A stretch of DNA of 64,000 nucleotides from contig BTUI01000009.1 in the NCBI GenBank assembly GCA_045863195.1, positions 51,951 to 115,950 of the forward strand, in the 5' to 3' direction. This DNA comes from Chloroflexota bacterium. Its GTDB lineage: Bacteria; Chloroflexota; Dehalococcoidia; UBA2979. Made by a program: the position numbers and the translations under genes. Positions 2,545 through 37,285 of this stretch are shown here, piece by piece (within the stretch, counting starts at the first letter, position 1; each line of letters begins with the position of its first letter). The notes under the pieces were generated by a model. It was not told the DNA's origin, searched no databases, and saw only the letters and a list, made by a program, of their open reading frames with translations.

Positions 2545-3691
2545 GCATCACGCGCTGCTGATCGAGCAGCCGTTCGTAGTAGGAGATCACCTGCTGGGCC
2601 ACGCGCGGCCAGGAATACTCCTCCACCCGCTGCCGGCCCTCCACCACCAGGCGGATGCGGCGCTCCGGGCTGCGCACCAGTTCGGTGAGCGCGTCCGCCA
2701 GCGCCATCGCATCGTTGGGACGGACGAGCAGGCCGTCCACCCCGTGGGTGATGACGGAAGCGTACCCGTCGATGTTGGAGGCGACGACCGGCAGGCCGGA
2801 CGCCATCGCCTCCAGCAGCACATAGCCCTGCGACTCGTGACCGAGGGCCGGCGAGCAGAACACGTGGGCGCTGCGGTGATAGCGAGGCAGGTCCTGATAG
2901 GTGATGCCACCCTCCGGCGCCTGGACGAACGTGATCCCTCGGAGCCCGCGCGCGGCCACGGCGCGCTCGTAGCGGGCGCGGGTGGGCGAATCCGGCCCGA
3001 CGATGATCAGGCGGGTGTCCGGGACGCGTGCGTTCACCACGCCGAACGCGCGGATGAGGACGGCCAGGCCCTTCCGCTTCTCGGCGCGGCCCACGTACAG
3101 GATGTTCGTGGTGCCCTCGAACTCCGGCAGCGGCTCCACCGCCGGGTTCGCCCAGTGCGCGATATCGATGCCATTCGGGATCACGTTGTAGAAGCCCGGG
3201 AAGTAGCGGGCGACGTACTGCGCGGCGGGCGGCGAGACGGCGATCTTCCCGTGCAACTCGCGGAACCAGCGGTGCAGCAGCCGGCGGCCATACGAGTAGA
3301 GGCGGTTTCCGCCGTCCTTGCGTGCATGGAAGGTGCCCACGTTGATGACGTTGGGATTCGCGGCGCGTGAGTGACGGAGCACCTGGATCGGCAGCACCGG
3401 CATCAGCGGCTCGTGCACGTGCACCACGTCGAACTGCTCGCGGTCCAGCACCTCCCGCACCTGTCGCCCCAGGCGAGGGTTGACCGGGATGCGCACCACG
3501 GAGCCAGACGCCGACACCGGGATCGGCCGGCCGATGGTGACCACGCCGGGGGTGGCCAGCGGCTCGCTGCTCGGCGCGATGATCATCGCCTCGTGGCCGC
3601 GGGCGCGGAGTTCGTCCGCCATCACCGCCACGTGGCGGTTCACCCCACCGGGGTGCTTCCAGTCGTATGGAGAGACCAGCGCCACCTTCAT
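2507..3691 (-). CDS. pimA: GT4 glycosyltransferase, PimA-like (phosphatidylinositol alpha-mannosyltransferase)
   Basis: MKVALVSPYDW..PGGVNRHV, DVVHVHEP, KIAVS, IPNGID and E..MASGLPVV motifs, as in mycobacterial PimA. The ATG at 3689-3691 forms an ATGA overlap with the stop of the upstream PHP gene. Confidence 0.85.
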   Translation of the reverse strand: MKVALVSPYDWKHPGGVNRHVAVMADELRARGHEAMIIAPSSEPLATPGVVTIGRPIPVSASGSVVRIPVNPRLGRQVREVLDREQFDVVHVHEPLMPVLPIQVLRHSRAANPNVINVGTFHARKDGGNRLYSYGRRLLHRWFRELHGKIAVSPPAAQYVARYFPGFYNVIPNGIDIAHWANPAVEPLPEFEGTTNILYVGRAEKRKGLAVLIRAFGVVNARVPDTRLIIVGPDSPTRARYERAVAARGLRGITFVQAPEGGITYQDLPRYHRSAHVFCSPALGHESQGYVLLEAMASGLPVVASNIDGYASVITHGVDGLLVRPNDAMALADALTELVRSPERRIRLVVEGRQRVEEYSWPRVAQQVISYYERLLDQQRVMHDTRQRRLARTE

Positions 3692-28688: not shown

Positions 28689-29579
28689 TCACGCGGGCCG
28701 GACCTCCAGCGACAGGTCGAGGGCGGGTGCGGAGTGCGTGAGCGCGCCGCACGAGATCAGGTCTACGCCGGTGGCGGCGACCTCCTTGATCGTGTCGAGG
28801 GTGATCCCGCCGGACGCCTCGAAGAGCACGCGCGCGTAGGCGGGGTTCGCGCGCGCCTCCGTCACGATGCCGCGCATCATGTCGGGCGTCATGTTGTCCA
28901 GCAGGATGACGTCCGCGCCGCCTTCCAGCGCCTCGCGCGCCATCTCCGGCGTCGTCACCTCGATCTCGATGCGCAGCGTGTGCGGCACCCGCTGGCGCAC
29001 CTCCGCGAGGAGCACGCGGATGCCGACGCCGCGCGCCGCGGCGGCGGCGAGGTGGTTGTCCTTGATCAGCACGCCGTCCTCGAGGGTGTTGCGGTGGTTG
29101 GCCGCGCCGCCCGTCCGCACGGCGTACCGCTCCAGCGCGCGCAGGCCGGGCGTGGTCTTCCGCGTGTCCACCACGCGCGCCGGGCCGCCATCGCGCGCCT
29201 TGTCCTGGTACTGCTGCGCGAGCGTGGCGATGCCGGACATGCGCTGCACGAGGTTCAACGCCACGCGCTCGGCGGAGAGGATCGCCGCGAGCGGGCCGGC
29301 GATCTCCGCGACCGTCATCCCGGCCTTCACCCACTGCCCCTCGTCGACGAGGAGTTCCACCTCCACGTCCGGGGAGACCTGCGCGAACGCCTCCGCGAAC
29401 ACCACCAGGCCGCAGATCACGCCGGACTGCTTCATCAGCAGCGTCGCCTCGCCCGGCTGGTCAGGCGGCACGGTCGCGCGGGTCGTGACGTCGAACCCGA
29501 CGCGGTCCTCCGCGAGGGCCAGCGCGACGATCTCGGCGACCGTCTCGGTGGCGGGGTGGTGCGGATTCTCGTCGGTCAT
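28689..29579 (-). CDS. nadC: nicotinate-nucleotide diphosphorylase (carboxylating)
   Basis: QPRTase fold; ..LLDNM..; 296 aa. Confidence 0.9.
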   Translation of the reverse strand: MTDENPHHPATETVAEIVALALAEDRVGFDVTTRATVPPDQPGEATLLMKQSGVICGLVVFAEAFAQVSPDVEVELLVDEGQWVKAGMTVAEIAGPLAAILSAERVALNLVQRMSGIATLAQQYQDKARDGGPARVVDTRKTTPGLRALERYAVRTGGAANHRNTLEDGVLIKDNHLAAAAARGVGIRVLLAEVRQRVPHTLRIEIEVTTPEMAREALEGGADVILLDNMTPDMMRGIVTEARANPAYARVLFEASGGITLDTIKEVAATGVDLISCGALTHSAPALDLSLEVRPA

Positions 29580-29589
29580 GTGCGTGCTC

Positions 29590-31152
29590 CTACGCCGGGC
29601 GGCCGGCGTCCTTGCGGAAGACGATGTGGCGACGCCACGCCTCGCGCGGCTCCGGGAAGTCGGTGCGGTAGTGCGCCCCGCGCGATTCCTCGCGCATCAA
29701 CGCGGCCTCCGAGGCCAGTCGAGCGCAGGTGATGATCGAGCGCAACTCGTAGCCCTCGCGGTCGGTCGGGCGGGGGACGGAGGCGGCCCAGCGGCGGAGC
29801 GTGGCGACGGCGCGCGTGAGGCTCTCCGCGCTCCGCACGATGCCCACGTCCTGCCACATCAGTTCCTTCACCTCGGCGGCCTGGGGGACGTGCCCGTCCG
29901 GCGTGAGCGGGAGCAGTTCGATGGCGTCTGCGGACCGGACAGGTGGCGGCGGGACGGGCTGGGGCGGGTTCAGCAGGCGCTCCACGGCCCGGTGCGCGAA
30001 CACGATCGTCTCGAGGAGCGAGTTGCTCGCGAGGCGGTTCGCGCCGTGGACGCCCGTGCAGGCCGCCTCGCCCACCACGTAGAGGCCGGGCAGCGTCGTC
30101 TCGCCCCAGGTGTTCGTGCGCACGCCACCCATCGTGTAGTGCGCGGCCGGTGAGACGGGCACGCGGTCGCGCGCCATGTCCAGGCCCGCTTCGAGGCACT
30201 TCGCGTAGATCTGAGGGAAGCGCGCGGCCAGCCAGCCCTCGTCGCGGTCGGTGATGTCCAGCAGGACGTGGTCCGCGCCCGTCTCCGCCATCTCACGCAC
30301 GGCGGCGCGCGCGACCACATCGCGCGGGGCGAGTTCGGCGCGCTCGCGGTCGTACTTCGTCATGAAGCGCTCGCCGCGCGTGTTGAAGAGCAGCGCGCCC
30401 TCACCGCGCACCGCCTCCGAGATCAGGAACACCGGCCTCCCCGGGATCACGAGGGCGGTCGGGTGGAATTGCGTGAACTCCATGTCCACGACCTCCGCGC
30501 CCGCCTCGTAGGCGATCGCGACACCGTCGCCGGTCGAGATCGGAGGGTTCGTGGTGGTGCGGTAGATCTGGCCCGCTCCGCCGGTGGCGAGGACGACCGT
30601 GCGCGCGGTGAAGATGCGGTGCTCGCCCGTGGTGCGCGTGAACACCTCCACGCCCGCGATCCGCCCGTCCTCCACCAGCAGCCGGTCCGCGAGGGTGTGT
30701 TCGAGGATCACGACCTCGCGCTGGGCGAGTGAGGAGAGCGAGAGTTCGATCTCCAGCCCGGTCGCGTCGCCGCGTGCGTGCAGGATGCGGGAGCGCGAAT
30801 GCGCCGCCTCGCGGCCCAGAGACACCTCGCCGTTCGTCGAGTCGAACTGCACCCCGTAGCGCACGAGGTCGGCGATGCGGTCGGCAGCCTCCTCCACGAG
30901 GATGCGCGCCGCCTCCTCGTTCACCAGGCCGGCGCCGGCCTCGATCGTGTCGTTGAGGTGGAAGGCGGGCGAGTCGCCGTCCCCGACGGCGGCGGCGATA
31001 CCGCCCTGGGCGTAGCGGGTGCTCGCCTCGCCGATGCCGGCCTTGGTGACGACGAGGACGCTGGCGCCCGACTCCTTCGCCTGGATCGCCGCGTACAGCC
31101 CGGCGATGCCGGAGCCGACGACGATGAGGTCGTAGTCGGAACGGCTGGTCAT
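29590..31152 (-). CDS. nadB: L-aspartate oxidase
   Basis: DLIVVGSGIAGL FAD motif; ..RYAQGGIAA..; 520 aa. Confidence 0.9.
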   Translation of the reverse strand: MTSRSDYDLIVVGSGIAGLYAAIQAKESGASVLVVTKAGIGEASTRYAQGGIAAAVGDGDSPAFHLNDTIEAGAGLVNEEAARILVEEAADRIADLVRYGVQFDSTNGEVSLGREAAHSRSRILHARGDATGLEIELSLSSLAQREVVILEHTLADRLLVEDGRIAGVEVFTRTTGEHRIFTARTVVLATGGAGQIYRTTTNPPISTGDGVAIAYEAGAEVVDMEFTQFHPTALVIPGRPVFLISEAVRGEGALLFNTRGERFMTKYDRERAELAPRDVVARAAVREMAETGADHVLLDITDRDEGWLAARFPQIYAKCLEAGLDMARDRVPVSPAAHYTMGGVRTNTWGETTLPGLYVVGEAACTGVHGANRLASNSLLETIVFAHRAVERLLNPPQPVPPPPVRSADAIELLPLTPDGHVPQAAEVKELMWQDVGIVRSAESLTRAVATLRRWAASVPRPTDREGYELRSIITCARLASEAALMREESRGAHYRTDFPEPREAWRRHIVFRKDAGRPA

Positions 31153-31607
31153 GACCGCTCGGTCCGTGCCGGTTCGGCCTCGAACACCTCGACCTCGGCC
31201 TCGAACGACTGAATGGCGCGCACGATGGCGTCCCAGTCGGCCGGCGTCTCCGGGCGGCCCGTGCTCGCGTTCAGGTAGGCGTAGCGGTGTGTGAACTGTG
31301 CCACCGTGCGGCCGTCGCTCGCCGCCAGCACCTCGCAGGCGAAGGTGAGGCGGCCCGGCCGCACCTCGGTGCAGCGGAGGCGCACGACCGCCGCGTCATC
31401 CCAGCGCAGCGGCGAGCGGTAGCGCACCTCGGACGAGACCTGGAAGCGCAGGACGTCGCGGTGGCTGGGGATGCCGGCCTCGCGGTCGTACGCGTCGAGG
31501 GCGATCTCGGTGAGCGCCAGCAGCACGCCGCCGTGCACGAACGGGGTGCCGCCGAAGGAGTCGGTGTGGCGGAGGGGGTAGCGCCCCTCGAAGCGGAACT
31601 CGGGCAT
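31149..31607 (-). CDS. hotdog-fold acyl-CoA thioesterase (4HBT/YbgC-like) embedded in the nad operon
   Basis: ..FVHGGVLLALTEIAL..; 152 aa. ATGA overlap with nadB. Confidence 0.6.
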   Translation of the reverse strand: MPEFRFEGRYPLRHTDSFGGTPFVHGGVLLALTEIALDAYDREAGIPSHRDVLRFQVSSEVRYRSPLRWDDAAVVRLRCTEVRPGRLTFACEVLAASDGRTVAQFTHRYAYLNASTGRPETPADWDAIVRAIQSFEAEVEVFEAEPARTERS

Positions 31608-31647: not shown

Positions 31648-32865
31648 CTACTTCAGCGCGAGCATCCGGTCGAGCGCGACCTTCGCGTCCCGGCGGTGGT
31701 GCTCCGGCACCTGCAGCCGGTTCACCACGTGCCCCTCCACGAGTGCCTCCAGCACCCACGCGAGGTAGGCGGGGTGGACGCGGTACATCGTGCTGCACGG
31801 GCAGACGACGGGGTCCAGGCAGAACACGGTCTTGTCCGGGTGCTCCTTCGCCAGGCGGGAGACCAGGTTGATCTCCGTGCCCACGCCGATCACGGAGCCC
31901 GGCGGCGCCTGCTCGATGTACTTCACGATGTAGCCGGTGGAGCCGTTCGCGTCCGCCGCCTGCACCACGTCATACCGGCACTCCGGGTGGACGACGATCT
32001 TTACGTCCGGGTTGGCGGCGCGGGCCTGCTCGATCTGCTGCACCGTGAAGCGCTGGTGCACGGAGCAGTGGCCCTGCCACAGGATGATGCGGGAGCGCTC
32101 CAGCGCCTCGGCGGACGCGCCGCCGAGGTTCCCGGCGGGCATCCGCCAGTTCCAGAGCACCATCTCCTCCAGCGGGATGCCCATCGCGTGGCCGGTGTTA
32201 CGGCCCAGGTGCTGGTCCGGGAAGAAGAAGACGCGCTTGCCGCGCTCGAACGCCCAGTCCAGCACCTTGGTCGCGTTGGAGGAGGTACAGACCACGCCGC
32301 CGTTGGCCCCGCAGAACGCCTTCAGGCTGGCGGCGGAGTTCATATAGGTGACGGGGATGACGTCCTCGGTGGTGCCGAAGAACTCCTTGAGTTCCGCCCA
32401 GGCGCGGTGGACATCCGGCTCGGCGGCCATGTCCGCCATCGAACAGCCGGCGGCCATGTTCGGCAGGATCACCTGCTGGTGGTCGGCGCGGAGCACGTCC
32501 GCGGCCTCCGCCATGAAGTGCACGCCACAGAATACGATGAACTCGGACTCGCCCCGGTTCGCGGCGTACTGCGCCAGCTGGAAGGAGTCCCCGCGCTCGT
32601 CCGCGAAGGCGATGATGTCCTCGCGCTGGTAGTGGTGGCCGAGGATCACGACCCGCTCGCCGAGCGTGGCCCGCGCAGCGTGGATCCGCCGCGTCAGTTC
32701 GTCCGCGCCGAGGTCCATGTACGCCTCGGGGATGTCGTTCTGCCAGGAGCGGAACGCGACCTCCTCGCTCAGCGGGATGGTGGCGATGCCGGTGTCGGTC
32801 TCGCACTGCAACTGGGCGATGGGGTAGCGGTCCGCCGTGAGGGCGATGGTGCTGCTCGGTGCCAT
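31648..32865 (-). CDS. nadA: quinolinate synthase NadA (long type)
   Basis: ..VVILGHHYQ..FCGVHFMAE..VVHPEC.. with Cys ligands. GAGGTGG RBS before the ATG at 32865. The track ORF is 27 codons longer. Confidence 0.9.
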   Translation of the reverse strand: MAPSSTIALTADRYPIAQLQCETDTGIATIPLSEEVAFRSWQNDIPEAYMDLGADELTRRIHAARATLGERVVILGHHYQREDIIAFADERGDSFQLAQYAANRGESEFIVFCGVHFMAEAADVLRADHQQVILPNMAAGCSMADMAAEPDVHRAWAELKEFFGTTEDVIPVTYMNSAASLKAFCGANGGVVCTSSNATKVLDWAFERGKRVFFFPDQHLGRNTGHAMGIPLEEMVLWNWRMPAGNLGGASAEALERSRIILWQGHCSVHQRFTVQQIEQARAANPDVKIVVHPECRYDVVQAADANGSTGYIVKYIEQAPPGSVIGVGTEINLVSRLAKEHPDKTVFCLDPVVCPCSTMYRVHPAYLAWVLEALVEGHVVNRLQVPEHHRRDAKVALDRMLALK

Positions 32866-32926
32866 GTGCCACCTCGGAGGGGACGGCGCGCGGGATGCTC
32901 GGACGGGCAGGCGCTGCGCGGTCGAC

Positions 32927-32954
32927 TTTGCGTATCTAGTACGCAAACTGGTTT
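32927..32954. promoter_or_regulatory. AT-rich 21-bp palindrome TTTGCGTA-TCTAG-TACGCAAA plus overlapping CAAAC-TG-GTTTG dyad upstream of nadA (candidate NrtR operator)
   Basis: Perfect 8-bp arms, 70-90 nt upstream of the nadA ATG, in an otherwise GC-rich spacer. The only copy in the window. Confidence 0.5.
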
Positions 32955-32985
32955 GTGTTCACCTTACGCTCAGCCCCCGGGGGTG

Positions 32986-34308
32986 TCAACGCGCGCCCGG
33001 CGTCTCCTCGGGCGGTGCGGGCGGCGGCAACGGACGTGCGAGGAGCACGACCGCCGCGGCGACGAGCGTGATGCTGGCGGTGATGGTGAAGGAGGTGGTG
33101 TAGGAGCCGGTGCGGTCGTCCAGCAGGCCGATCGCGAACGGCCCGAAGCCGGACGACATCTGCCCGACCATGCTGATGATCCCGAACACCGCGCCGAACG
33201 ACACCACGCCGTAGATCTCGCTCACCAGCAACGACTGCATCATGTAGACGTTCCCAATGGTCATGCCGAAGAGCAGGATGAACAGGTAGGTCGCCCACGC
33301 GCTCTCCACGCGCAGCACCAGCAAGACCGCGACCGCCTGCACCACGAACACGCCCACCGTCAGCCAGCGCTTGTCCATCTCGTCCGCCACCACCCCCATC
33401 GCCAGCCGCGCGACGATGCTGCCGAACGCGGTGATCGAGAGCGCCCGCGCCGCCGCGCTCTGCGAGCCGAGGCGCTCCTCCAGGAACGCGATCTGGTGGA
33501 TGACGAACCCTGTCTGCGCCATCAGCACGAGCGCGAACGCCACGATGATCGCCCAGAACGGCACCGTCGCCATCGCCTGCCGGAGCGTCCACTTGCGTCG
33601 CTGGGTCGCCTCGCCCAGCGCGGAGTTCTGAGGGCGCTTCGCGAGCGCCTCCTCCTCGCTGCGGTCGCCGTCCGGGAGCATCCCCACGTCCCGCGGGTCG
33701 AAGACGAGCACCCAGATCACGATCGGGATCGTCACGAGGAACACCAGCGAGCCGAGCACCGGGGTGGCGAGCGCGAGCCCGCCCCGTTCCACGAGCGCGG
33801 CGCCGAGCGGCGCGAGGATCACACCACCCCAGGAGACGCCGGTGCTGGAGACGCTCATCGCCCGCGCGCGGCGGCGGATAAACCAGCGCGACATGATCGC
33901 GTTGATCGCCACGCCGGAGGCGAACCCGGAGCCGAGCGCGAGCGTGATGTAGACCGCGTACAACTGCCACAACGCGTCCACGTACCCGACCGAGGCAGCC
34001 GTGATGCCGATCAGCGTGAAGCCGATCAACTGGAACCGCTTCGGCCCGTACTTGTCGATCTGCGGGCCGATCAGCGCCGTCCACACCCCCGACATCACGA
34101 AGTACATCGAGGTCGCGCCGGAGACGGCCGCGTTCGACCAGCCGTGCTCCTCCTGTAGCGGCTTCAGGAACACCGCCAGGCCGTAGTAGCCGACCCCCGC
34201 CGTCACCATCCCCATCACCGCCGCCGCCACGGCGATGTTCCAGCCGTAGAAGTAGCGCTTCGGCAGCAACCGCACGCCGAGGGGGAGGCGGGACGGGGCG
34301 ACGCTCAC
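32986..34308 (-). CDS. MFS transporter (possible NiaP-like niacin/NAD-precursor permease by context)
   Basis: 12-TM MFS topology. The GTG start forms a GTGA overlap with the LLM gene stop. The 715-aa track ORF is a read-through artefact. Confidence 0.7.
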   Translation of the reverse strand: MSVAPSRLPLGVRLLPKRYFYGWNIAVAAAVMGMVTAGVGYYGLAVFLKPLQEEHGWSNAAVSGATSMYFVMSGVWTALIGPQIDKYGPKRFQLIGFTLIGITAASVGYVDALWQLYAVYITLALGSGFASGVAINAIMSRWFIRRRARAMSVSSTGVSWGGVILAPLGAALVERGGLALATPVLGSLVFLVTIPIVIWVLVFDPRDVGMLPDGDRSEEEALAKRPQNSALGEATQRRKWTLRQAMATVPFWAIIVAFALVLMAQTGFVIHQIAFLEERLGSQSAAARALSITAFGSIVARLAMGVVADEMDKRWLTVGVFVVQAVAVLLVLRVESAWATYLFILLFGMTIGNVYMMQSLLVSEIYGVVSFGAVFGIISMVGQMSSGFGPFAIGLLDDRTGSYTTSFTITASITLVAAAVVLLARPLPPPAPPEETPGAR

Positions 34309-35234
34309 CGGGCACCGCCGTGTCGCGCCTGCAGCGCGGGGATGACGTCTGTCGCCACGCGCGTGAGTTGCATCAGCCGGTCGCCGCCGGCGAAGACGAT
34401 GTTGATGTGACGGACGCCCGCATCGATGAACTCGCCGAGGCGCTCCATCCACATGCCGGCGTCGCCGTAGACCGTGTACCGCTCGAAGCGGTCGAACGGG
34501 ACGCGATAGGTGCTCTCGATGCGGGCCGCGATCGTCGGCAGCGCCTCGGCGAGGTCGTCGTCGAACTGGCCCCACAACTGCAACGCTGGGCGGATGGCGT
34601 CCGGGTCGCGGCCGAGGGCGGCCGCCTGCTCGCGCACGTTCGCCCAGCCCTCCGCGAACCGCTCCGGGGTGATGACGAAGGGCATCCAGGCGTCGCCGTA
34701 CCGCGCCGCGCGGCGCTGCGCCGCCGGAGCGCGGCCGCCGACCCACACGGGGATGCGCGGCTCCGGCACCAGGTCCAGGCGCGCCTCGGTCACGTCGATC
34801 TGGCGATTGTGGAGCGTGACCGGCTCGCCCGACCAGAGCGCGGCGAGCGCCTCCAGCGTCTCGTCCAGCGCGCGCCCGCGCTCCGCCAGCGGCACCCCAG
34901 ACGCCTCGAACTCCTTCGCGTACTCGCCGCCGACGCCGACGCCGAGGCGGAAGCGGCCGCCGGACATCCACTGGAGCGTCGCCGTCTCCTTCGCGAGCGG
35001 CGCGGGGCGGCGCAGCGCCGCCAGCAGCACACCCGTGCCGAGGCCGATCCGCTCGGTCACGGCGCTGGCGGCGGCCAGCATCGTGAGCGGCGCCGGCCAG
35101 AAGACCGGCCAGAGCACGTGGTCGCCGACCCACGCGGAGTCGTACCCCAGCGCCTCCGCCGTCTGCACGGCGGCGAGGAACTCCTGCGGGGTGCTACCGC
35201 CCGGGAGGACGCCAAAGGTGAGGTCGTGAGGCAT
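34305..35234 (-). CDS. LLM-class (luciferase-like) F420/flavin-dependent oxidoreductase
   Basis: ..LGYDSAWVGDH.. TIM-barrel LLM signature; 309 aa. Confidence 0.75.
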   Translation of the reverse strand: MPHDLTFGVLPGGSTPQEFLAAVQTAEALGYDSAWVGDHVLWPVFWPAPLTMLAAASAVTERIGLGTGVLLAALRRPAPLAKETATLQWMSGGRFRLGVGVGGEYAKEFEASGVPLAERGRALDETLEALAALWSGEPVTLHNRQIDVTEARLDLVPEPRIPVWVGGRAPAAQRRAARYGDAWMPFVITPERFAEGWANVREQAAALGRDPDAIRPALQLWGQFDDDLAEALPTIAARIESTYRVPFDRFERYTVYGDAGMWMERLGEFIDAGVRHINIVFAGGDRLMQLTRVATDVIPALQARHGGAR

Positions 35235-35272
35235 CGCGCGAGTCTACCGGACGCCGGTCAACCGTGGCCCGG

Positions 35273-35944
35273 CTACAGGAAGACGGGCTCGCGGCTGGCG
35301 AAGCGGTAGAGCGTGGCGGGGCGGTGCGCGCCTTCGCGCCGGGTTTCCCCGGTCGCCTCGATCAGTCCGGTGGAGAGCATGCGCTTGCGGAAGTTGCGGC
35401 GGTCCAGGTCTTCGCGCAGCACCGCCTCGTACGCGGTCTGGAGTTCGCGCAGCGTGAACTGCTCCGGCAGCAGGCCGTAGGCGATGTTGGTGTAGTCCAG
35501 TTTCGCGCCCACGCGCCGCACGGCCTGGTCGATCACGCGGTTGTTGTCGAACGCAAGCGGAGGGAGGTCGTCCACCGCGTGCCACGCCGGCCGCCACGCC
35601 TCCTCCTGCCGCAGCCGCACCTTCGCCGCCTCCACCAGCGCGAAGTAGGCGACCGCCACCGAGGGCTGCCGGGGGTCGAGGCCGGAGGTCGTGAACAGCT
35701 GCTCGAGGTACAGGTCTGCCACGCCGGTCTCCCGCACCAGGTTGCGGTGCGCGGCCTGCTCCAGCGACTCGTCGCCGCGCCAGCGGCCGCCGGGGAGCGC
35801 CCAGCGCTCCCGCTCCGGCTCCGCGGAGCGGTGCACGAGCAGCACCTGCAGCCGCTCTCCGATCACCGCGAGGATGACGACGATCGTCGCGACCACGGGC
35901 GTGCCGTCAGGGCCGTCGGGCGAAGTGCGGCGGGCGGGTGCCAT
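35273..35944 (-). CDS. nrtR: Nudix-domain transcriptional regulator, NrtR-like (Nudix + C-terminal winged HTH)
   Basis: Degenerate Nudix box LPGGRWRGDESLEQAAHRNLVRETGV. C-terminus ..FTLRELQTAYEAVLREDLDRRNFRKRMLSTGLIEATGE..RPATLYRF matches the NrtR DNA-binding domain as I remember it. Confidence 0.6.
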   Translation of the reverse strand: MAPARRTSPDGPDGTPVVATIVVILAVIGERLQVLLVHRSAEPERERWALPGGRWRGDESLEQAAHRNLVRETGVADLYLEQLFTTSGLDPRQPSVAVAYFALVEAAKVRLRQEEAWRPAWHAVDDLPPLAFDNNRVIDQAVRRVGAKLDYTNIAYGLLPEQFTLRELQTAYEAVLREDLDRRNFRKRMLSTGLIEATGETRREGAHRPATLYRFASREPVFL

Positions 35945-35968
35945 GCGTCGAGGGTAGCGGAGCGGCCG

Positions 35969-37285
35969 CTACAGGACGGCGAGCGCCAGGTCGCCGGCCA
36001 GGTGGCCCTGCAGCGACCATGGCGTGACCTGCGAGATGGTCACGTCCACCAGTTCGCCCAGCCGGCCGCGCCCGTCGAAGTGGACGATCTGGCCGCGGCG
36101 CGTGCGCCCGCTGGCGCGACCCTCCTCCTCGCGCTCCACGAGCACCTCCACGGTGCGCCCGAGGAGCGCCTGGTTGATGCGGTCGGAGGAGGCGCGGTGG
36201 ATGCCTTCGACCACCTGCAGGCGCTGCTTCTTCACCTCGGCAGGCACGTCGTCCGCGAGGTGGCGGGAGGCGTAGGTGCCGGGGCGCGGCGAGTAGGCCG
36301 CCACGTGCACCGTGTCGAACTGGATGCGCTCCAGGAGGTCCACGGTCGCCTGGAACTCCGCCTCCGTCTCGCCGGGGCACCCGACGATGACGTCCGTGAC
36401 GATCGCCGCGTCCGGCATCCGGCTGCGGATGCGCGCCACGCGATCCTCGAAGTCCGCCACGGTGTATCCGCGGCGCATCCGCTCCAGCATGGAGTCGGAG
36501 CCGGACTGCACCGGGATGTTGAAGTACTCGCACACCTTCGGCTGGTCGGCCACGGCGTCGATGATGCGGTCGGTCATGTCCTTCGGGTAGGAGGTCAGGA
36601 AGCGGACGCGCGTGATCCCGTCGATCGCGTCGATGCCCTCGAACAGCGTCGCGAGGTCGGGGCGGTCTGGCAGGTCGTGGCCGTACGCCTCCACGGTCTG
36701 GCCGAGGAGCGTGATCTCGCGCACGCCGTGCCCGGCGAGGAACCGCACCTCGTCCAGGATGTCGGCGGCGGGTCGGGACGCCTCGCGTCCGCGGCGGAGC
36801 GGGACGATGCAGTAGGTGCAGAACTTGTCGCAGCCGTGGATCACCGGCACGTATGCCGTGGGGCCGGTCGGTAGGCCGTAGGTGTTGCGCATCCCGCCAC
36901 CGACGAGCGCGCCGAGTTCGCCGCCGGACACGTCCCGCGCCTCGGCGGCCATCGAGAGGATGCCGTCGAACTCCTGAGGGCGGGCCCACACGTCCACGTA
37001 CGGGAAGCGCTTGCGGAGGTCGTCCGTCTTCGGGCCGACCATGCAGCCCATCACCACGATCTTCTGCTGTGCGCCCTCGGTGCGGCGCTTCCGCAGGATG
37101 CCGAGGCGGGAGTAGGCGCGGTCCTCCGCGTGCTGGCGGACGGAGCAGGTGTTGATCACCACCACGTCCGCCTCCGTGTCCTCGTCCACGGCGCGGTAGC
37201 CCAGCCGCTCCAGGCCGGCGGCGAGTTTGAGGGAGTCGGCCTGGTTCATCTGGCAGCCAAGCGTCCAGATGTGGAAGGTGGACAC
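35969..37285 (-). CDS. miaB: tRNA methylthiotransferase MiaB (radical SAM, TRAM domain)
   Basis: ..WTLGCQMNQADS.. and CTYCIVP radical-SAM cluster; 438 aa. Confidence 0.85.
   Translation of the reverse strand: MSTFHIWTLGCQMNQADSLKLAAGLERLGYRAVDEDTEADVVVINTCSVRQHAEDRAYSRLGILRKRRTEGAQQKIVVMGCMVGPKTDDLRKRFPYVDVWARPQEFDGILSMAAEARDVSGGELGALVGGGMRNTYGLPTGPTAYVPVIHGCDKFCTYCIVPLRRGREASRPAADILDEVRFLAGHGVREITLLGQTVEAYGHDLPDRPDLATLFEGIDAIDGITRVRFLTSYPKDMTDRIIDAVADQPKVCEYFNIPVQSGSDSMLERMRRGYTVADFEDRVARIRSRMPDAAIVTDVIVGCPGETEAEFQATVDLLERIQFDTVHVAAYSPRPGTYASRHLADDVPAEVKKQRLQVVEGIHRASSDRINQALLGRTVEVLVEREEEGRASGRTRRGQIVHFDGRGRLGELVDVTISQVTPWSLQGHLAGDLALAVL

Follow-up and report, generated by a model that had tools for sequence, protein, structure and literature searches.

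Which genes an NrtR-type regulator controls, and through which DNA element, is the question raised by a 64,000-nucleotide stretch of contig BTUI01000009.1 (assembly GCA_045863195.1, positions 51,951 to 115,950; in the following termed the window) from an uncultured Dehalococcoidia-class member of the Chloroflexota. On this stretch, the regulator gene nrtR is followed by genes for an F420-dependent LLM-class oxidoreductase (LLM) and a transporter of the MFS type (MFS), and then by the genes for de novo synthesis of nicotinamide adenine dinucleotide (NAD). The comparative analysis described below makes it highly likely that this region carries a switch for NAD synthesis with a repressor of the NrtR type: NrtR would act on two operators (O2 and O1) in front of nadA and thereby repress nadA-(thioesterase-like gene)-nadB-nadC.

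All genes of the region are encoded on the minus strand. In the order of transcription, the regulator gene, the intergenic region with its strong operator and the nad operon comprise:

35273-35944, minus strand: nrtR, 223 amino acids, Nudix-like domain and C-terminal NrtR winged helix (Pfam)
32866-32985: intergenic region between MFS and nadA, 120 nt
32927-32947: O1, predicted strong NrtR operator TTTGCGTATCTAGTACGCAAA, reading TTTGCGTACTAGATACGCAAA on the nadA strand (34.5 bits with the position weight matrix, PWM)
31648-32865, minus strand: nadA, quinolinate synthase, heading the predicted regulated operon (Pfam NadA, E 2.4e-96; TIGR00550, 319 bits vs. cutoff 263)
31149-31607, minus strand: thioesterase-like gene, hot-dog fold protein of 152 amino acids (Pfam 4HBT_2 and 4HBT, E ~2e-7)
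29590-31152, minus strand: nadB, L-aspartate oxidase (TIGR00551, 541 bits vs. cutoff 453)
28689-29579, minus strand: nadC, quinolinate phosphoribosyltransferase (TIGR00078, 306 bits vs. cutoff 198)

Conserved palindrome upstream of nadA

The original prediction, made from the letters of the window, had placed an AT-rich 21-bp palindrome between the stop codon of MFS (32986-32988) and nadA (ATG at 32863-32865), and O1 is found there. It consists of perfect 8-nt arms around a 5-nt centre (TTTGCGTA-N5-TACGCAAA), has a GC content of 38 % (71.7 % in the window), is separated from the nadA ATG by 61 nt and would correspond to about +8 to +28 of a transcript predicted to begin near 32954 on the minus strand. 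The dyad is present as a single copy in the window, even if 3 mismatches are allowed. Nine perfect 8-5-8 inverted repeats occur in the window as compared to 4.1 in shuffled sequences (shuffle maximum 9), with O1 being the only AT-rich one among the 8-5-8 repeats of the window. Since such repeats are not statistically unusual in the window, the palindrome is not significant by itself; the case rests on comparative evidence, i.e., its weight comes from conservation rather than symmetry.

A single scan with the NrtR protein against the species representatives of GTDB yielded 76 loci, about 52 of them from Chloroflexota (NrtR 55-86 % identical). In 44 of these ~52 loci, nadA-(thioesterase-like gene)-nadB-nadC is located near nrtR, with a distance of 0.1-10 kb between nadA and nrtR. 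When the 300 nt upstream of nadA were searched for the closest match to the dyad, it was retrieved in all 44 related species loci, with 13-16 of the 16 arm positions matching except for the most distant locus (10 of 16). Conservation upstream of nadA in related genomes, which had been named beforehand as the test of the proposed palindrome, was therefore found without exception. Anchored on O1, the information content amounts to 1.5-2 bits at positions 1-9 and 13-21 and to about 1 bit at each of two flanking positions on either side; outside these positions, including the three in the centre, it drops to about 0.1-0.3 bits, the surroundings being otherwise unconserved. The extended 25-bp consensus reads A-S-TTWGYGTAC-N3-GTACRCWAA-S-T, of which G6T7 and A15C16 are invariant in 44/44 loci. 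The common NrtR motif is a 21-bp palindrome with a GT-N7-AC core (Rodionov et al., PMC2330246), and comparison with this general rule, as given in the main text of that study, shows O1 to fit the core (G6T7-N7-A15C16). A PWM derived from the O1 sites found no match of at least 14 bits in 638 kb of shuffled locus DNA. Judged from this conservation and motif class, the 21-bp dyad very probably represents an NrtR operator in front of nadA...nadC.

Alternatively, the palindrome could reflect secondary structure (a terminator of MFS, or an attenuator or riboswitch-like leader of nadA) or mere chance, as a terminator scan flagged 32927-32947 on the plus strand and 8-5-8 repeats are common in the window (9 vs. 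4.1 expected). However, no plus-strand gene ends at the dyad, and the hairpin on the minus strand has no U-run. Furthermore, no Rfam match (E ≤1), including NAD+ riboswitches, was obtained in 32600-33200, and the fold of the nadA leader (5' untranslated region) is ordinary (z = -0.65). The two arms vary independently without compensatory changes: the pair at positions 5-17 is C-G (12), C-A (11), T-G (6) or T-A (5), and full complementarity over 9/9 positions is restricted to 2 of the 34 distinct sites. Such independent variation is as expected of two protein half-sites, not of a selected hairpin. Both the terminator reading (wrong strand, no U-run, no compensatory changes) and that of a NAD riboswitch or structured leader (no Rfam match, unremarkable fold) were rejected, and chance is excluded by conservation over 44 species, so that a structural or fortuitous origin of the dyad is hardly credible.

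Promoter of nadA and second operator

Three further elements are predicted in front of nadA, the -35 hexamer reaching into the end of MFS:

32984-32989, minus strand: putative -35 element TTGACA, overlapping the stop codon of MFS (32986-32988) and separated from the -10 element by 17 nt
32961-32966, minus strand: putative -10 element TAAGGT (TAnnnT type), proposed from conservation in the cross-species alignment
32952-32972: O2, predicted weaker NrtR site, reading TGAGCGTAAGGTGAACACAAA on the nadA strand (PWM 14.0 bits)

In the alignment of upstream regions, TTGACN followed after 17-18 nt by TAnnnT is conserved in essentially every related locus. The centre of O2 contains the -10 hexamer and is located 25 bp upstream of the centre of O1 in the window; O1 begins 13 nt after the -10 element. 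At a spacing of 24-26 bp from O1, O2 scores above the shuffled-null maximum in 39 of the 44 loci. Anchored on O2, GCGTA is invariant, A15-C16-R17-C18 are conserved, and T12 (the last T of the -10 element) is present in 43/44 loci. A precedent for tandem NrtR sites is provided by Shewanella prs-nadV (PMC2330246). The original prediction had also described a second dyad, CAAAC-TG-GTTTG, overlapping the first. It is indeed present at 32944-32955, but does not represent an independent element: the outer arm of O1 here faces the outer arm of O2, and the repeat is degraded in those relatives that have CGAA at the end of O2. A further palindrome (CCCCCGGGGG) fills the spacer between the -35 and -10 elements (32973-32983, minus strand) in the window and in loci L003, L004 and L033, with partial versions elsewhere; it is too short and loop-less for a terminator.

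The NrtR protein

The nrtR product matches Pfam NUDIX (PF00293, E 8.6e-16, residues 22-138) and NrtR_WHD (PF21906, 93.5 bits vs. cutoff 27, residues 157-215), in agreement with the initial view of a Nudix protein of the NrtR family carrying a winged helix. The C-terminal block on which this view had been based (RNFRKRMLSTGLIEATGE...RPATLYRF) is present and aligns with AraR of Bacteroides thetaiotaomicron (BtAraR) and NrtR of Shewanella oneidensis (SoNrtR); both proteins are matched over the full length (BtAraR 5bs6, E 4e-33; SoNrtR 3gz5, E 9e-25). The Nudix domain also aligns with NadM-type Nudix domains. The Nudix box, likewise expected to be degenerate, reads G-GRWRGD-E-SLEQAAH-R-N-L-V-R-E-T-G-V, i.e., REUXEE is changed to RNLVRE with the loss of two of three Glu residues. 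Within the clade the box conforms to R-[K/V/N]-L-V-[E/R]-E; none of 121 sequences (window protein and 120 homologues) retains the first Glu. Perturbation of the Nudix signature (GX5EX7REUXEEXGU) is typical of non-catalytic NrtR members, albeit not obligatory (PMC2330246), and was found in the nrtR product together with the other hallmarks of the family, i.e., Nudix-fold domain, winged helix, a 21-bp operator sequence with GT-N7-AC core and linkage to NAD genes.

NadQ (COG4111) was rejected as an identity of the protein: only residues 129-216, comprising the winged helix, match 7q91 (E 3e-13), with the N-terminal domain remaining unmatched; the protein is therefore an NrtR rather than a NadQ. 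An exact copy of the NrtR protein was found on only two assemblies, both short and derived from public sequencing runs; its relatives stem from metagenome-assembled genomes (MAGs), all labelled Dehalococcoidia or Chloroflexota.

Does the operator belong to NrtR?

Loci with an NrtR of 38-49 % identity also occur in other phyla (Binatia, Bacteroidota, Woeseiaceae, Lacunisphaera). In these, the highest-scoring PWM match directly precedes nrtR or nadA-nrtR, so that motif and regulator move together. Among the genes surrounding the related loci, nrtR is the only conserved regulator gene.

Several observations weigh against an NrtR-operated nad promoter of the conventional kind. (i) Dyads of the form TTTGYGTAC-N3-GTACACWAA adjoin TetR-family genes in unrelated high-GC metagenome contigs (L117 at 7543, L130 at 4435, L197 at 3358); by itself, the degenerate pattern therefore does not identify an NrtR site, and the assignment of the dyad to NrtR would draw on co-localisation, motif class and conservation. 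(ii) With the NCBIfam model NF050029 ('ADPR responsive transcriptional repressor NtrR') the nrtR product scores 151.2 bits (cutoff 400), which makes it a family member outside this orthologous group. (iii) The closest relative of solved structure, BtAraR, is a regulator of arabinose utilisation and not of NAD metabolism. (iv) A strict sigma-70 scan over 32700-36100 called no promoter, TAAGGT included, because this hexamer shares no more than 3 of its 6 positions with TATAAT. (v) Most residues known to contact the effector in SoNrtR are replaced (see below).

On the basis of the TetR-adjoining dyads, the atypical effector pocket and the fact that binding of NrtR to the dyad is a prediction, one may ask whether the dyad serves another regulator (TetR-type or an unlinked NAD regulator), with NrtR controlling something else or nothing. 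The three sites beside TetR genes were set aside as look-alike operators. The dyad of the window, however, has the geometry of NrtR sites (21 bp, GT-N7-AC), is located 0.1-10 kb from nrtR in 44 species and moves with nrtR in other phyla, where it precedes nrtR or nadA-nrtR; near the related loci, no regulator gene but nrtR is conserved. We consider it very unlikely that a regulator other than NrtR operates this site.

Effector pocket

ADP-ribose releases SoNrtR, syNrtR and MsNrtR from DNA (PMC2330246, PMC6800001). According to the accounts given in PMC4666351 and PMC6800001, NAD strengthens DNA binding by NdnR of Corynebacterium glutamicum and hence acts as co-repressor; effector logic is therefore not uniform in the NrtR family and cannot simply be assumed for the present clade. 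The ADP-ribose contacts of SoNrtR (PMC4666351) were mapped via HMMER alignments, with the 3-residue numbering offset checked on both structures. Only one of the six contacts (Arg41) is invariant in the clade:

SoNrtR Arg41: R39, invariant
SoNrtR Asn43: A, G or S
SoNrtR Lys76: E72, invariant
SoNrtR Arg98: R92 in the window protein, A, S or T in most relatives
SoNrtR Tyr10 and Phe15: no counterpart; N-terminus variable and without aromatic arm
BtAraR Arg86 and His131 (ribose contacts, spatially conserved in SoNrtR): invariant L89 and N134

The clade has an invariant pocket set of its own (R39, W55, E72, L89, D90, N134); its pocket is conserved among the relatives, yet unlike the solved examples. 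The proposal of an ADP-ribose-binding NrtR is plausible, but is weakened by the replacement of several SoNrtR contacts. By analogy to the family, ADP-ribose may serve as the default guess for the effector, with the chances for and against it being roughly balanced. Since most of the SoNrtR contacts as well as the shared ribose-binding Arg/His pair are replaced, one may speculate that the clade NrtR senses a different ligand and that the hot-dog protein could contribute an accessory step to de novo NAD synthesis; this combination is possible, though doubtful. In a weaker form of this idea, LLM, in many loci probably co-transcribed with nrtR, would form or remove the effector.

Extent of the regulon

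Where nadA is split from the operon, an extra strong site directly precedes either the thioesterase-like gene or nadB (L006, L012, L018, L087, L122). About 20 of the 44 related loci have the thioesterase-like gene placed between nadA and nadB, and it has a strong operator of its own when heading thioesterase-like gene-nadB-nadC (genes at L012 17871-18341, L018 19224-19712, L087 7836-8349, L122 103-590). Because of this own strong site in cases where nadA is separated, the hot-dog gene is predicted to be a genuine and conserved member of the NrtR regulon. A PDB sequence search with the thioesterase-like protein yielded no match.

A metagenome scan with the degenerate pattern gave 120 matches, most of them in low-GC contigs of unrelated organisms; the analysis covered the high-GC contigs. 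Besides many nad-operon sites, it revealed sites immediately upstream of glutamine-dependent nadE in L184 (6991-7011), L114 (4692-4712), L095, L125, L186, L153 and L115 as well as in the truncated L109 and L112. The source-named homologues of these site-bearing nadE genes are labelled Dehalococcoidia or Chloroflexota MAGs. Among the nadE loci fetched from Dehalococcoidia-type assemblies, 5 of 7 (four distinct genes) carry a site of 30-36 bits (L200-L204, around 2925-3020). The nadE sites are placed behind the same TTGAC-17-TAnnnT promoter layout, and in the MAG Dino_bin15 a nadE site and an nrtR locus (L019) are present in one assembly. The nadE genes with operator are usually divergent from ctaG, beside a cytochrome oxidase cluster.

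No site was detected at the nadE loci L199 and L205, and the nrtR genes of the same two MAGs (L044, L027) have no nadA nearby. These MAGs retain the order miaB-nrtR, but have neither nadA within 10 kb nor an operator at nadE. A search for nadE in both the window and the nrtR loci gave no result; regulation of nadE in the genome of the window may be assumed by analogy. Neither a salvage gene nor an autoregulatory nrtR site was seen in this system.

Genes between regulator and target

The row of genes upstream of nadA is completed by:

35969-37285, minus strand: miaB-like gene, MiaB-family radical-SAM methylthiotransferase (TIGR00089, 449 bits)
34305-35234, minus strand: LLM, F420-dependent LLM-class oxidoreductase (TIGR03619, 185 bits vs. 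cutoff 167)
32986-34308, minus strand: MFS, transporter of the monocarboxylate / oxalate-formate type (MFS_1, E 2e-42)

The GTG start of MFS overlaps the LLM stop codon (GTGA at 34305-34308), confirming the coupling of both genes that had been read from the sequence. The longest open reading frame through the dyad (32936-34315) was rejected as the MFS gene, as it is a GC-rich shadow frame.

The order nrtR-LLM-MFS-operator-nadA...nadC had been taken to indicate a single NAD-responsive unit, with LLM and a NiaP-type MFS under control of NrtR. The genes indeed run in the same direction with little space between them, LLM and MFS share the GTGA overlap, LLM follows nrtR in 17 of 35 relatives (at times at a distance of 5-10 nt), and MFS and nadA are not separated by a terminator. 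Moreover, nicotinate is a monocarboxylate and MFS resembles monocarboxylate transporters, so that import of a pyridine carboxylate would be chemically conceivable. However, PWM sites upstream of nrtR, LLM and MFS are absent from the window (none ≥10 bits) and from ~50 related loci (none ≥14 bits). Both O1 and O2 are located downstream of LLM and MFS on a separate conserved promoter, the -35 element of which contains the MFS stop codon. Furthermore, the distance between nrtR and nadA varies from 135 bp to 9.6 kb among relatives. In loci with nadA downstream of nrtR, this slot harbours LLM in 17/35 and MFS in only 8/35; unrelated occupants are PMT_2 glycosyltransferase, HDOD, CoA-transferase III, methyltransferase, GNAT, LtrA and MatE, several of them on the opposite strand. 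In L019, the LLM homologue is found 6 kb away on the other strand. A common NAD-responsive unit is thus improbable, and the inclusion of LLM and MFS in the regulon was not substantiated, in view of missing upstream sites, variable presence and a position of both genes upstream of the nadA promoter. LLM and MFS rather do not appear to be under control of NrtR, but to be passengers between regulator and target. Co-transcription of LLM with nrtR is likely, because LLM often follows nrtR by only 5-10 nt in relatives; this does not amount to regulation by NrtR. That the LLM and MFS genes are neighbours of nrtR hence does not make them members of the regulon, and the earlier over-extension is corrected accordingly.

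The specific role suggested for MFS, i.e., a NiaP-type importer of NAD precursors, also found no support. Among profile models, MFS scores best with that of L-lactate MFS (146.6 bits, below its cutoff), with bile-salt MFS and oxalate/formate (88.7 bits) also among the best; the L-lactate transporter SfMCT (6g9x) is matched over the full length (E 5e-28). NiaP is closest to the PcaK/BenK aromatic-acid symporters (PMC2330245), but the respective model (TIGR00895, aromatic acid/H+ symport) gave only 31.8 bits (cutoff 418), placing MFS outside the NiaP/AAHS subfamily. Judged via this family model (31.8 bits vs. 146.6 bits for L-lactate), NiaP identity was rejected. An operator of a NAD regulator upstream of the transporter, as expected for the NiaP type, is likewise missing at MFS.

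On the other side of nrtR, the 3' end of miaB is located 24 nt before nrtR, and the order miaB-then-nrtR is kept in ~50 related loci. The 24-nt gap (35945-35968 in the window) contains no promoter-like sequence, and in none of the loci does an NrtR site occur there. Thus, nrtR seems to ride on the transcript of miaB, with which it is probably co-transcribed and which is the probable source of nrtR transcription; the regulator gene seems to use the transcript of a tRNA-modification gene, without autoregulation of the Mycobacterium type. In Binatia MAGs (L056-L064, L066), nadA and nrtR form an operon (NrtR 45-48 % identical) with the related motif TATGCGTCA-N3-TTACGCAAA about 100-270 nt upstream of nadA; unlike the Dehalococcoidia arrangement, this one is predicted to be autoregulated.

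Proposed mechanism

In the favoured model of NrtR acting on O2 and O1, the operon nadA-(thioesterase-like gene)-nadB-nadC would be driven by its own sigma-70-type promoter (TTGACA / TAAGGT, minus strand). NrtR dimers, each combining a catalytically dead Nudix domain with a winged helix, would bind O2 around the -10 element and O1 past the transcription start, and in this position exclude or block RNA polymerase. Since no terminator between MFS and nadA was found by the terminator scan and by reading the sequence of the window, bound NrtR would probably also roadblock read-through from miaB-nrtR-LLM-MFS. A NAD-derived ligand in the Nudix pocket, by family precedent ADP-ribose, may lower the affinity for DNA and thereby de-repress the operon. 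In related MAGs, nadE would be subject to the same operator, and nrtR itself is expected to lack autoregulation.

These findings extend NrtR control of NAD synthesis, as a prediction from comparative sequence data, to a large lineage of uncultured Dehalococcoidia-class Chloroflexota. The operator model A-S-TTWGYGTAC-N3-GTACRCWAA-S-T, in tandem over a TTGAC-17-TAnnnT promoter, should be usable to annotate nadABC/nadE regulation in these MAGs.

Comparison with known systems

NrtR of Mycobacterium smegmatis (MSMEG_3198; PMC6800001) is likewise a repressor composed of Nudix domain and winged helix, has an inactive Nudix box and is encoded beside nadABC. As proposed here, de novo NAD synthesis is controlled from a palindromic operator at the nadA promoter. 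In M. smegmatis, however, regulator and nad genes are transcribed divergently and NrtR also represses its own gene, the operator being a single 23-bp site (GTTTTCGA-N7-TCGAAAAC; PMC6800001), whereas in the present system nrtR is co-directional, positioned after miaB and without own site, and TTWGYGTAC-N3-GTACRCWAA occurs in tandem (O2 and O1). SoNrtR (3GZ5/3GZ6/3GZ8) shares full-length homology (E 9e-25), the 21-bp GT-N7-AC palindrome and tandem sites (PMC2330246), and in both cases hydrolase activity is not expected. It differs in regulating salvage (prs-nadV) instead of nadABC (PMC2330246) and in its ADP-ribose contacts Tyr10, Phe15, Asn43, Lys76 and Arg98, which are not conserved in the clade of the window.

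The predicted NrtR regulon of Roseiflexus sp. involves the same phylum, the same regulator family and de novo nad targets. In Roseiflexus, the regulator acts on its own gene, which is linked to pncA/pncB of the salvage pathway; neither feature was seen here, and the predicted targets include nadE and the hot-dog protein. The best solved relative, BtAraR (BT0354, 5BS6; PMC4666351), has the same dimeric architecture of Nudix domain and winged helix-turn-helix and produces two shifted bands on a promoter, interpreted in that study as complexes with one and with two dimers (PMC4666351). In contrast to the regulator described here, with NAD genes as predicted targets, it senses L-arabinose and controls arabinose utilisation, and its contacts Arg86/His131 correspond to Leu89/Asn134 of the present protein.

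Among the Nudix-related regulators of nadABC in other bacteria, NadQ (COG4111, 7Q91) is homologous in the winged helix, but not in the N-terminal domain. NdnR of C. glutamicum is, as far as described in PMC4666351 and PMC6800001, an NrtR-family repressor of a nadA-nadC operon, as proposed for the present case; its gene belongs to the operon that it regulates, and DNA binding improves in the presence of NAD. The switch proposed here is of an ordinary type that is already well described, refined to a two-site operator and extended in the lineage to nadE and a hot-dog protein.

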